Source: a virus
Lineage: Duplodnaviria > Heunggongvirae > Uroviricota > Caudoviricetes
Virus record (IMG/VR): IMGVR_UViG_2663762939_000013
Strand: one strand, 5' to 3'
Length of the DNA stretch: 24,431 bases
A program made the position numbers and the translations under genes. This document shows positions 1,985 through 7,200 of the stretch, in pieces; the first letter of the stretch is position 1; the number at the start of each line of letters is the position of its first letter. Below the pieces are notes generated by a model, which was not told the DNA's origin, made no database searches, and saw nothing but the letters and a program-made list of their open reading frames with translations.

Positions 1985-2794
1985 TTATTCCTCTGAATTA
2001 TCGATTACACTGTATTCCCCGGTTAATACAGAGGAATCTGCAGGATCGATTGTCAGTGGTTCCTTTTCATCCATTGATACTGCACGCTGGATCTCAATTG
2101 ATACGGGCAGATATTTGAACAGGCGACGAATAGCCGTTTTCTTTGCCATTTCTTCCCAGTGAGTTACCCACGGCCCGTTATTACCAGCTTTACTCAGGCT
2201 GCGCACCAGCTCAATCTGTTTGCGCGTCATAACTTCAAACTGAGTACCTCCGTCTTTCAGTCTTGCGACAGCATAGACGTGGGTAACCGGGGCATCTTCG
2301 TTTTCTCCCGGGCGGTGTATTAACTTTTCATCAAGGCCAAATTCGAAGCTAAACTCGTCACCTTCACGGACAACACGGGCTGACAGGCTGGCGATTTGAC
2401 CAGAACGGCGAGCCAGATCAATCATGCCGCGATAGCCAATGATTAGCTGAACGTTCTTTTTACCGCTCTTTTCGTTTTTATTACCAAAAGGCAGTAAATA
2501 TGCATGACCGAGGGCGCTACCTGGCTCAAGTCCGAGCTGTGAACACTGTACGATCGCACTGACAAAACTCATAGTGTCACAGTTTCCTAACGCCGGAACT
2601 TTACGAATTTCTGTAGTGGCGATACGGATCATACGTTCAGCCGTCATATGGCGTGGAAGAGCTGCTGCCAGTTGCTCTTTCATTGATGGCTGGTTAATAA
2701 AACTAATCACGTCGCTATTTTTAACTGCTGCTGGTGCACGGTTTCCCTGAGTTTTTTGCAGATCGGCTTTTGCGATTGGTGGTTGCTTAGTCAT
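1985..2794 (-). CDS. recT: RecT single-strand annealing recombinase, 269 aa
   Basis: Protein from [35 protein letters not shown]... recognised as RecT; start overlaps recE 3' end by 8 nt (translational coupling). Confidence 0.95.
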
Positions 2795-5387
2795 TTGCAT
2801 ATTCCTTAGCCCAGCGGGGCAGTGATAATGTCTTAATAGCTGGCCATTCATCGGTATTCAGGCAGTCAGACAGGGTTCGCAGATTGCGGTGATATTCCTG
2901 TTGACCTGCCAGTTTTGCTTCTTCGCCCATCATGAAAATTTCAACCGGATAACGTCCGCATTCAATAGTTGTGCTGGCAACCAGAAAAACGAAAGTTGGC
3001 TGCACTCCAAACAGTGCTTCATAACCGTCACTGTAGAATGCATCCTGAACGTGATAGCGGTAGTCGTAATAAGCGGTTTTGAATCGTTGAATATCCGCCG
3101 TAGTTTTCACGTCCATGATCCAGTGAAATTCAGGGATAATTTTGTCCGGACGGCACCGACACAAAATTCCTGTTTCAGGATCTTCCCAGTAAATTGATGA
3201 TTCAGCGTGTCCGGCGCTTTCAACAAGCCATTGCCCCAGCGGCAAAGCCATAACGCTTTGATACATGAGTTCAATTTTCCGGCCTTCTTCCGCAGTGATA
3301 ACCGTTTTTCCTGTGCTTGCGCATTCCATCAGAAACGCTTTCTCTTCTTCTTTTCCGGCGTTTGTACGGCGGTTAAATTCAGGTGCTACGATAAAGCGGT
3401 TACTGAATTCTTCCGGTTCAAGTACCCGGCAGTGGAAAGCAGTTCCTAAATCGAGCGTTTTTGTCTTTGTGGTGTCCACGGGGGCATTTTTACGCCACAA
3501 ATATAGTGCCGGAGTATCAGCAATGTCATCGAGCTGAGACTTACTGATACCGGGACCCGCGTGGTAATTCTCATTCGAAATTCCGTAATAAATACCTGGC
3601 TCTATGTCTTCTACGATTACGGGATCTGCGACTTCGCCAGTTTCATCACTGCAATCGTGATGCGGATCGCTGCCAGCATTCTCATTGTGCGGATGTTCAG
3701 CGCCTTCCATTTCCTCCGGATCATTTTCCTTAGCTTCAACCTGACTCTCTTCATCGAATGTTTCCTGGTATGTTGCGTCGCCCATCACCGCACCACAGTC
3801 AGGGCAGTTATCCCCGCCAGTCTGGCCGCAGGCATTGCAGGCTATTTCCGGTTCCTGTTGCACTACTGGCTCAGGTTGATTCATATCTGGGCTGGTTTTT
3901 TCCGTTTCTGGCTGGTTCTGGTACACACAATCGCGAGTCTGGATCCCCTTTACCCATTTCGGATCGTTCGGGTCGCTAATTCCGTCAACAAATTCACCAC
4001 GTGATGCAGCAAGCAATTTATCGGCATCGACAGGATTTTTTGATGGAATGTTTTTCCGGGCTTCATGGAGTTCTGCCCGCAGTTCCTGATATTTCGCATC
4101 AACAGAATTTACCTGTGACTGAGCATCCAGCGGCTGCGTGTCCTGATGATGTTCAGTTGCGTCCGGTTCCATTGTTTCAGCCTCTCCCTGTTCAACTGCC
4201 GTTGTTCCAGATGGTTGCGGTTTTTCTTCATCATCCTGTTTTCCTTCTTCTGTTACTCGCTGCGGCATCGGGGCAGAGGAGCGACTGCAGGCAATATCCA
4301 CGATTTCCGGATCAGGGTTGGCATGATCGGTTTCAGTCAGTACTTTGTTCAGATATTCAGTGACGTGCGCGGGGATGACCTCGATCCCAATTGGTGCTTC
4401 TTTTACGGACGCAACCACGATGGCGCGGGAATAATCCAGCCCGCCAGGCATGGTGATGAATTTGTCGCGGAAAACAGAAAAGGGCGGTTTATTTTCAGCG
4501 ATAATTTCCTCAATGCGTTTAGCGTGTGCCGGATGAAGGTTATAGATGTCCAGATCCATTGAACGGGCCAGTACGCCAGTGGCTACGTCGCGCGCCAGTG
4601 ACGTCAGATCGTGTACGAAACCTTCGCCGCGATCGGTGAGGTTTCCGCCGCCAGCATTAGCACCGGAAGCCGTGCGAGTGATGTGTGAAACACGATTACC
4701 CTTCATCCACTCTTTTGTCAGCAGTCCTCGATCGGTGTAGTCAGCGTTCAGGTATGCTTCGAAAAAAGCAGTTATCAGTCCCAGGTTTGAATTACCAGGA
4801 TTAGGGAAAACTTTGTCAGTGTCACGAACCAGTTTGTGGAGTTCGCGAATTTCCAGCGGGTCGAGCAGGCTGGTTTTGTGGGAAACAGCCAGGGCAGTAA
4901 CAGCCGGTAGTTCTTCAGCCCGAGCAATGTGTAATGCCTGGAGTCCGTCGCGTGAAACGTGCGTTACCGGTTTTTCGCTGCCGTGTTGAGCAAGCCAACG
5001 AATGGGCAGTTCCTGGCCAGAAATTGGGAGTAGCATATTCTCCTCAATCTCAGTCATGTCTTCGCCGTTGACGTTGGTATTGCCTTGATAATGAGCGTTG
5101 TCTGGTGCTGCTCCCGGTTTTAGTTCCCATGTCATGGAGTCTTTGCTGAGTTGATAGCGTTCACTCCAGGTAAAATCGATCTCACCTTCAGCGGGCAGGT
5201 CATTAACGACAGGAAAATTCGTGGCAACAGCTTTAAAATAGCTGCTCAGTTTTTTACCTGACTTAACGATCAGGTAGTCCAGAGTGGCACAGGTCGATTC
5301 AAAATCGTTGCTTGCCCACAGGACGACGTCAGGTTCACCGGATGATTTTTTCGCTTTCCGTAACAGGAAGAGTGGTTTTGTGCTCAT
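2787..5387 (-). CDS. recE: RecE exonuclease VIII, 866 aa
   Basis: 866-aa ORF ([30 protein letters not shown]...), length and sequence as I recall for Rac RecE; acidic low-complexity middle region, exonuclease domain at C-terminus; upstream of and overlapping recT. Confidence 0.95.
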
Positions 5388-5488
5388 TGTTTTTTAACCT
5401 CAACTCAGATTAAAATTCGTTTTGTTCAGTGAATGATCTTGCCGGATACACACTGTTCATAGCCTGCGCCATACGCAGGCTATTTCTT

Positions 5489-5764
5489 TCAGATTTCACC
5501 TTTTAATTTCATTGCAATTAGAGTTGCCAGAAATTCGGCTTTTTTTTCTGCGGGCAGATTCTTTCCGATATGCACCAGGCACATTTTTTTGACACCTTCA
5601 TCAAGTGTTTTTACGTTGCCTGATGGACCATCGATATCAACCACAGTGAATGGGGTTTCTTTATTTTCTGTTTTAATTACGTAGCCAATGCGCTTTCCTT
5701 CCAGATTCACCTCGTGAACAATGTCATCGGTAGTTACAACAGTGGCTTCATAATTGGTAATCAT
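5489..5764 (-). CDS. racC: RacC small protein, 91 aa
   Basis: ATG at 5764 preceded by GGAG; protein MITNYEATVVTTDDIVHEVNLEGKRIGYVIKTENK...; located directly upstream of recE as in Rac. Confidence 0.8.
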   Translation of the reverse strand: MITNYEATVVTTDDIVHEVNLEGKRIGYVIKTENKETPFTVVDIDGPSGNVKTLDEGVKKMCLVHIGKNLPAEKKAEFLATLIAMKLKGEI

Positions 5765-5838
5765 GTTTTTCTCCTTAATTAAGGTTGAGCGAATACCTGC
5801 CATTTCTGGCATAAATTCAGTTTCGAATAGTCAATTAA

Positions 5839-6005
5839 TTAAAGTTCATGTGCCATCTGGTCTTTTTCGGCACAAGCTTCACTGCAATATTTTCTCGGTT
5901 CGTCTTTTGATAAAATCCCGTGCATGAAGTGAAGCATTCTTTCAATAGCTTTGCTTTCTTCAACGTCTTTTTTGCAAAGGTGGTAAGCACATTTTATTTT
6001 CTTAG
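5839..6005 (-). pseudogene. ydaE: 5'-truncated ydaE-like zinc-binding small protein; start codon lost at the IS5 junction
   Basis: Minus-strand frame ...KKIKCAYHLCKKDVEESKAIERMLHFMHGILSKDEPRKYCSEACAEKDQMAHEL-stop (stop at 5839-5841) runs open into the IS5 terminal repeat with no start codon; Cys/His spacing suggests zinc binding. Gene symbol is a positional guess (racC-ydaE order in K-12). Confidence 0.5.
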
Positions 6006-7200
6006 GGAAGGTGCGAATAAGTGGGGAAATTCTTCTCGGCTGACTCAGTCATTTCATTTCTTCATGTTTGAGCCGATTTTTTCTCCCGTAAATGCCTTGA
6101 ATCAGCCTATTTAGACCGTTTCTTCGCCATTTAAGGCGTTATCCCCAGTTTTTAGTGAGATCTCTCCCACTGACGTATCATTTGGTCCGCCCGAAACAGG
6201 TTGGCCAGCGTGAATAACATCGCCAGTTGGTTATCGTTTTTCAGCAACCCCTTGTATCTGGCTTTCACGAAGCCGAACTGTCGCTTGATGATGCGAAATG
6301 GGTGCTCCACCTTGGCCCGGATGCTGGCTTTCATGTATTCGATGTTGATGGCCGTTTTGTTCTTGCGTGGATGCTGTTTCAAGGTTCTTACCTTGCCGGG
6401 GCGCTCGGCGATCAGCCAGTCCACATCCACCTCGGCCAGCTCCTCGCGCTGTGGCGCCCCTTGGTAGCCGGCATCGGCTGAGACAAATTGCTCCTCTCCA
6501 TGCAGCAGATTACCCAGCTGATTGAGGTCATGCTCGTTGGCCGCGGTGGTGACTAGGCTGTGGGTCAGGCCACTCTTGGCATCGACACCAATGTGGGCCT
6601 TCATGCCAAAGTGCCACTGATTGCCTTTCTTGGTCTGATGCATCTCCGGATCGCGTTGCTGCTCTTTGTTCTTGGTCGAGCTGGGTGCCTCAATGATGGT
6701 GGCATCGACCAAGGTGCCTTGAGTCATCATGACGCCTGCTTCGGCCAGCCAGCGATTGATGGTCTTGAACAATTGGCGGGCCAGTTGATGCTGCTCCAGC
6801 AGGTGGCGGAAATTCATGATGGTGGTGCGGTCCGGCAAGGCGCTATCCAGGGATAACCGGGCAAACAGACGCATGGAGGCGATTTCGTACAGAGCATCTT
6901 CCATCGCGCCATCGCTCAGGTTGTACCAATGCTGCATGCAGTGAATGCGTAGCATGGTTTCCAGCGGATAAGGTCGCCGGCCATTACCAGCCTTGGGGTA
7001 AAACGGCTCGATGACTTCCACCATGTTTTGCCATGGCAGAATCTGCTCCATGCGGGACAAGAAAATCTCTTTTCTGGTCTGACGGCGCTTACTGCTGAAT
7101 TCACTGTCGGCGAAGGTAAGTTGATGACTCATGATGAACCCTGTTCCATGGCTCCAGATGACAAACATGATCTCATATCAGGGACTTGTTCGCACCTTCC
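6006..7200 (-). mobile_element. IS5 insertion sequence, complete, 1195 bp, no target-site duplication
   Basis: Terminal inverted repeats GGAAGGTGCGAATAAG (6006-6021) and CTTGTTCGCACCTTCC (7185-7200); encloses InsH transposase; 1195 bp as expected for IS5. Flanking 4-mers differ (TTAG left, ATAG right). Confidence 0.95.
6152..7132 (-). CDS. insH: IS5 transposase InsH, 326 aa
   Basis: [44 protein letters not shown]... recognised as IS5 InsH; in-frame upstream ATG at 7168 gives the 338-aa form. Confidence 0.95.

Follow-up and report, generated by a model that had tools for sequence, protein, structure and literature searches.

An IS5-bounded deletion in a Rac-type prophage removes the repressor region and leaves an intact recE-recT block that is probably silent or weakly expressed

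The recE and recT genes of the Rac prophage are silent in wild-type Escherichia coli K-12 and are activated by rare sbcA mutations (PMC3945230; PMC9504249); in MG1655 they are fully repressed, and activation occurs only through such mutations or through lambda capture (PMC3945230). Here we analyze a 24,431-nucleotide stretch of a Rac-type prophage (the window; IMG/VR record IMGVR_UViG_2663762939_000013), in which the same operon, recE and recT included, lies downstream of a copy of the insertion sequence (IS) IS5. Insertions of Tn5/IS50 upstream of recE reportedly activate it from a promoter inside IS50, in work ascribed to Fouts et al. in 1983 and to Clark, Satin and Chu in 1994. The sbcA and Tn5/IS50 alleles were selected for RecET activity and their expression was measured, whereas the present arrangement is known from sequence only; here, moreover, the element is of a type (IS5) not known to carry an outward promoter, and the deletion has taken the repressor gene as well. 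The rusA gene of the DLP12 prophage is likewise a silent recombination gene of a cryptic prophage placed downstream of an IS, and is said to be activated by insertion of IS2 or IS10 (rus-1 and rus-2, attributed to Mahdi et al. in 1996). IS2 and IS10 carry outward promoters. IS5 does not (PMC5526668; PMC11894529).

Activation by IS5 itself has been described at several operons. At fucAO, where IS5 has the same orientation as here, transcripts that start at the transposase gene ins5A cross the whole element into the operon (PMC11894529, Zhou et al. 2025). An rrnB terminator placed right after the ins5A promoter abolishes expression, and the remaining IS5 adds no promoter activity; the promoter alone is essentially inactive and works through a Crp site centered at −61.5 in the upstream flank (PMC11894529). 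Plasmid reporters gave no expression from the 600-bp IS5 termini, a chromosomal reporter was raised modestly by an upstream IS5, and a Rho mutation was inferred to boost read-through from the element (PMC5526668). At glpFK, bgl and flhDC the element precedes, as here, an AT-rich operon that was acquired horizontally and is silent; in those cases a resident promoter is derepressed by IS5, whereas none is evident in the window between the IS5 end and recE.

The window differs from K-12 Rac by the loss of the entire control region. The match to K-12 runs to window position 6005 (reference-locus 8005), one nucleotide past the ydaE start codon, and restarts at 7201 (reference-locus 14674), exactly at trkG codon 298, with IS5 between the two points. 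Absent are 6,668 bp of K-12 (reference-locus 8006–14673), racR and the racR-ydaS control region included. The genes lost relative to K-12 are kilR, kilS, sieB, ydaF, ydaG, racR, ydaS, ydaT, ydaU, ydaV, ydaW and rzpR/rzoR, together with 297 trkG codons; replication genes and lysis remnants are among them. Lowered RacR activity in K-12 raises ydaC, kilR and ralA by more than 70-fold and ydaF, ydaG, ydaE and racC by about 40-fold (PMC6765115; PMC11014345). Since these leftward genes are derepressed when RacR falls, native control of the operon lies on the racR side, in the deleted segment, which bears out the claim of a first-pass annotation of this DNA that the native promoter/repressor region had been lost. 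We infer that a strain-specific deletion, arising through ordinary IS-associated prophage decay, has left the recET block silent or weakly expressed, a reading to which we assign a probability of roughly 0.6.

The block itself is intact. Open reading frames (ORFs) and alignment to K-12 confirmed that racC, recE, recT, ralR, ydaC (rcbA), ydaQ (xisR) and the IS5 transposase gene all lie on the minus strand, as had been annotated; intR is on the same strand, and the strands are those of the MG1655 annotation. The order intR-xisR-rcbA-ralR-recT-recE-racC on a single strand is near-identical to K-12 Rac and identifies the Rac recET module. Nucleotide identity to K-12 is 100% both across intR-xisR-rcbA-ralR (window 1–2000 against reference-locus 2001–4000, an offset of 2000) and across 5380–6005, which covers the recE-racC spacer, racC and most of ydaE. 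RecT matches K-12 RecT at 269 of 269 amino acids, and RecE is full-length, with 862 of its 866 residues identical. The four RecE substitutions (G368S, D455A, R577H and Q792L, the last near the C-terminal end of the protein) occur although the flanking recT, racC, ralR and intR DNA equals that of K-12.

The element at the joint is a canonical IS5 of 1,195 bp; its 16-bp terminal repeats are GGAAGGTGCGAATAAG and CTTGTTCGCACCTTCC, and ins5A is intact. It differs from canonical K-12 IS5 (the NCM3722 dgcP copy) at four nucleotides, at about 6022, 6312, 6554 and 7147; none of them falls in the −35, the −10 or the start of the transposase promoter, which is the same as the published one. No 4-bp target duplication surrounds the element, the left flank being TTAG and the right one ATAG, whereas the control dgcP copy has TTAG on both sides. 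These unmatched flanks indicate that the joint arose by IS5-adjacent deletion or by recombination between two IS5 copies and not by simple insertion, and because TTAG fits the YTAR target whereas ATAG does not, a first insertion in ydaE is mildly favored. By the first route, IS5 would have inserted at TTAG in ydaE codons 2–3, and the DNA beyond its transposase-promoter end would then have been deleted up to trkG codon 298; by the second, two directly oriented IS5 copies would have recombined. Either would yield one canonical IS5 with unmatched flanks. IS-mediated decay of cryptic prophages, and the insertion and deletion steps in IS-driven operon formation (PMC8860574), likewise feature one IS, unmatched flanks and the loss of a neighboring block. 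The first-pass description of the locus is thus refined in that ydaE is truncated and has lost its ATG, trkG is truncated, and a target duplication is missing.

The joint appears to be confined to this prophage. Among 5,426 complete E. coli genomes, not one covers at least 80% of window 5400–7800, and exact 35- and 37-mers of both junctions found no match in GTDB representative genomes or JGI metagenome contigs. The usual arrangement is common: racC-ydaE-kilR is contiguous in 1,737 genomes and recE-racC-ydaE in 1,477, and the 5′ kilobase of recE was matched in 1,442. We conclude that the event is private to this lineage. Two candidates for the same joint were rejected, namely an IS5 in trkG of strain ES9, which sits at a site 309 bp away in another prophage, and an ISKpn26 in 23AR1101, which sits between sieB and ydaF. 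A joint seen in no other genome searched could also be produced by assembly, if two real IS5 copies, located in ydaE and trkG respectively, had been collapsed and the intervening segment dropped; the TTAG/ATAG mismatch is exactly what such a collapsed repeat would yield. We nevertheless hold this to be very improbable indeed, given that ATAG does not fit YTAR, so that a separate second insertion at this site is less probable, and that closed genomes hold real IS-bounded deletions of the same region.

K-12 Rac carries an IS5 of its own, IS5Y in lomR (reference-locus 17601–18795), which is only ~95% identical to both the window IS5 and canonical IS5. Its divergence is greatest at both ends, the transposase promoter region included. 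With IS5Y so divergent, the window IS5 is not derived from it; for the same low identity IS5Y was dropped as the IS5 reference and the canonical dgcP copy used instead. On the other side of the joint, an ORF of 193 codons (7186–7767, plus strand) starts at a TTG within the IS5 terminal repeat and continues in frame into what is left of trkG (the remnant 'trkG), probably a chance fusion. The first 297 trkG codons being gone, the strain presumably depends on other potassium uptake systems.

The first-pass interpretation, with IS5 as a possible new source of transcription, held in part: its structural half, loss of the control region and a co-directional IS5, is right. The ins5A gene is co-directional with the downstream operon and its −35, −10 and start are intact; with Pfsn, the IS5 fusion promoter described at fucAO, it shares the IS5 orientation, identical promoter elements and start, and the lack of a terminator inside IS5 (PMC11894529). 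Pfsn needs the Crp site at −61.5, whereas no Crp-like site (TGTGA-N6-TCACA, three mismatches or fewer) was found within 7094–7391, and therefore none at any class I position (expected centers 7220.5, 7230.5, 7241.5 and 7251.5, that is, −61.5, −71.5, −82.5 and −92.5). By inspection, the −42 to −60 flank (TGCAAGTCATACATACCTAT) holds no A/T-tract of the UP-element type. A sigma-70-like consensus scan of the minus strand returned no site in 5300–7900. The best minus-strand match to a position weight matrix (PWM) was TTGAAG-16 nt-TGaAAGAAT in native ydaE sequence (5963–5936, score 9.85), and the sole candidate spanning the junction combined TTCGCA from the IS5 end with TAAAAT over a 15-nt spacer (6017–5991, score 8.15); the ins5A promoter itself scored 5.8. 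Both candidates lie below the shuffle mean maximum of 11.1, so that no outward or hybrid promoter at the IS5 end or junction beats chance. Co-direction and the read-through precedent at fucAO thus stand in favor of IS5 as a transcription source; the lack of a Crp site and of any promoter above shuffled sequence stands against it.

A transcript passing the ins5A stop would first have to cross 387 untranslated nucleotides to reach the racC ATG, and within them C is in excess over G at 6073–5944. The gap is this long because the truncated ydaE (ydaE′) has no start codon. Its translation would read KKIKCAYH..., and no replacement start codon for that frame lies inside IS5 after the last upstream stop; ydaE′ is probably not translated. 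Long untranslated stretches of RNA are a context vulnerable to Rho-dependent polarity, and we would expect this gap to be so, an expectation drawn from what is established about such polarity and not from a computation. The distance from IS5 to the first translated downstream gene is also greater here than at fucAO.

Several results weigh against a silent block. No intrinsic terminator was predicted on the minus strand from 7159 to recE, and the 396-nt RNA spanning the untranslated gap (6160–5765) has an unremarkable predicted fold (z = −1.45). With neither a terminator nor a stable fold, a transcript starting at or upstream of IS5 could reach recE. The 'trkG flank is AT-rich (37.6% GC) and may contain antisense promoters too weak for consensus scans to pick up. 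By analogy with fucAO, crossing of the whole element is mechanistically possible (PMC11894529), and expression on the chromosome did rise modestly below an upstream IS5 (PMC5526668). Even low RecET levels may already give a phenotype.

A rival reading makes the locus a natural equivalent of sbcA, in which transcription from the ins5A promoter, from the 'trkG flank or from a hybrid promoter formed at the left IS5 end would continue into racC-recE-recT, and constitutive RecET would be tolerated as kilR and ydaS/ydaT were lost in the same event. Such a reading, close to the constitutively recombination-proficient background suggested by the first-pass annotation, could draw on the co-orientation of ins5A and recE, on the reported Tn5/IS50 alleles of recE, on the absence of an intrinsic terminator between them, on the expression of fucAO by ins5A transcripts that traverse IS5 (PMC11894529), on the chromosomal reporter (PMC5526668) and on the two candidate promoters at 6017–5991 and 5963–5936. 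We nonetheless think it unlikely. A single IS shares the orientation of recE with a prior of 0.5, and taken alone this is not significant. The ins5A promoter is essentially silent without a Crp site and none is found in 7094–7391, the −42 to −60 flank lacks a UP element, both candidate promoters score under shuffled sequence, and the 15-nt spacer of the hybrid one is poor. The IS5 ends lack outward promoter activity (PMC5526668; PMC11894529), and the untranslated stretch leaves a transcript open to Rho termination. The RalR toxin, XisR and IntR would rise as well if leftward transcription were strong. Finally, Rac excision in K-12 is coupled to the loss of repression by RacR (PMC11014345), yet the arm is still in place here, a weak argument. 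Orientation aside, every sequence feature that the precedents would require for IS-driven recET is missing. Constitutive, sbcA-like RecET is possible and not the default expectation: the sequence does not support it, with an ins5A promoter that is nearly inactive, no Crp site to rescue it, and IS5 termini that are inert on plasmids.

IS5 might instead act as an enhancer. Its bent, ins5A-distal segment, which carries an IHF site and lies beside ydaE′-racC, would then stimulate a weak resident promoter or relieve H-NS silencing, as at glpFK or bgl, and recET expression would be conditional. The IS5 end abutting ydaE′ is also the one turned toward glpFK in insertions that activate that operon (PMC11894529; Zhang and Saier 2009 as cited in PMC5526668), and the best promoter-like site of the strand is 43–70 bp from it. 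That site is within chance, however, no promoter is known to reside between kilR and recE, and in K-12 the genes follow RacR control as one block (PMC6765115), which together make enhancement very unlikely.

Decay thus remains our preferred explanation. The remnant is an intact recE-recT-ralR-rcbA-xisR-intR series behind racC, stripped of its repressor and of its native promoter. The only upstream promoter on that strand would be that of the IS5 transposase, nearly inactive intrinsically and with no activator site in its new flank. The lethal genes (kilR and ydaS/ydaT) would have been removed together with the repressor that held them off, an outcome of decay rather than of RecET activation. 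On present evidence the locus is a clean, well-delimited case of IS-associated prophage decay. It also offers a useful test of the recently described rule by which the transposase promoter of IS5, silent by itself, turns on downstream genes only if it has come to lie beside an activator site.

Other Rac prophages have lost parts of the same region at an IS. In ES8 (5875–6690 of the ES8 locus) the order is recE-IS1B-'trkG: the IS1 is co-oriented with recE, one end lies 47 bp before the recE ATG and the other end is also in trkG. LHM10-1 (6887–7760 of the LHM10-1 locus) and CP52E have recE-IS1-ISEc52′-'rrrD, where 117 bp separate the upstream IS1 from recE, and in ET650 (9962–10805 of the ET650 locus) the order is racC-IS1-tRNA genes-lysis genes, the loss ending a little beyond racC. 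Compared with the ES8, LHM10-1 and ET650 losses, the end points in the window (ydaE codon 2 and trkG codon 298) are unique and the element is IS5. Such independent IS1-bounded losses in other Rac prophages are consistent with ordinary decay, and they are rare against about 1,450 genomes with the normal arrangement. The ES8, LHM10-1 and ET650 parallels came from a query that contained recE, an ascertainment bias by which they say nothing on selective retention of recET. A common, convergent pattern of IS-bounded deletions beside recE was therefore rejected as unproven, the normal arrangement being dominant.

A broader version of the activation idea is that a wild E. coli lineage carries Rac as a repressor-free, kil-free cassette, with RecET transcribed constitutively, even if weakly, from or through IS5, and with raised RecA-independent recombination at short homologies. 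We find this quite doubtful. Under it, the IS1 deletions of ES8 (47 bp) and LHM10-1 (117 bp) would be parallel solutions. If RecET were truly expressed, the strain would be a naturally recombineering-proficient E. coli, and an IS-bounded deletion would have domesticated a prophage recombination module, with toxic neighbors and repressor gone in one step.

The features of the window are collected in Table 1. RalA was the sole match in the Rfam scan.

Table 1. Coordinates of the recET block, the IS5 joint and the trkG remnant, in window numbering.
Feature	Position	Strand	Basis
intR integrase, last gene of the leftward block	1–1236	−	ORF and 100% identity to annotated K-12
xisR (ydaQ), excisionase	1238–1453	−	K-12 annotation (reference-locus 3238–3453), 100% identity
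rcbA (ydaC)	1532–1741	−	K-12 annotation (reference-locus 3532–3741), 100% identity
RalA antitoxin small RNA, antisense to rcbA and ralR	1557–1735	+	Rfam RF02694, full length, 225.1 bits against a gathering score of 170
ralR, type I toxin (DNase)	1734–1928	−	K-12 annotation (reference-locus 3734–3928), 100% identity
recT, intact	1985–2794	−	Amino acid identity to K-12
recE (exonuclease VIII), intact, 866 amino acids	2787–5387	−	Amino acid identity to K-12
Native hairpin in the racC/recE spacer	5459–5483		Terminator scan; identical to K-12; T-run for plus-strand transcripts only
racC, intact	5489–5764	−	100% identical to K-12 (reference-locus 7489–7764); Shine-Dalgarno AAGGAG before ATG
ydaE′, lacking the ATG and one further nucleotide	5839–6005	−	K-12 ydaE corresponds to window 5839–6009; homology ends at 6005
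TTAG left flank, canonical IS5 target (YTAR)	6002–6005		Sequence; matches the flanks of the control copy
IS5, 1,195 bp, canonical, with intact 16-bp terminal repeats	6006–7200	−	Sequence and comparison with the NCM3722 dgcP copy
ins5A transposase ORF, 338 codons from the first ATG	6152–7168	−	ORF; matching records annotate an IS5 family transposase
ins5A promoter: −35 gtgcga (7195–7190), −10 gatcat (7172–7167), start A (7159)	7159–7195	−	Mapped from PMC11894529
ATAG right flank, not YTAR, unlike the left flank	7201–7204		Sequence
'trkG 3′ remnant, K-12 trkG codons 298–485	7201–7767	+	Alignment to reference-locus 14674–15240, one mismatch

The deletion may be larger than the comparison with K-12 indicates. 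In strain c1-17, whose fuller Rac-like prophage the right arm of the present one resembles, ~14 kb separate the repressor gene from trkG, and judged against its gene positions the true loss may be roughly 15–17 kb, an estimate. The c1-17 prophage also carries an annotated anti-phage pair, iteA/iteS (4184–7577 of the c1-17 locus), between its replication and late-regulation genes, the interval deleted here.

The right arm of the window (7905–12188 onward) holds a full-length ParB/Srx-like gene (263 amino acids) and the small and large terminase subunits, and continues with portal, P22-type capsid, tail tube and tape-measure genes; K-12 Rac has only the remnants ynaK and ydaY. With these late genes present, decay of the prophage has gone less far than in K-12 Rac on the late side and further in the center. 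At 17732–19005, two overlapping minus-strand ORFs of 301 and 136 amino acids are typical of IS2 orfB/orfA, and matching records annotate an IS2 family transposase. They break the row of head-tail genes between the ORFs at 17418–17807 and 19138–19518, and this second IS in the same prophage probably renders the late region non-functional.

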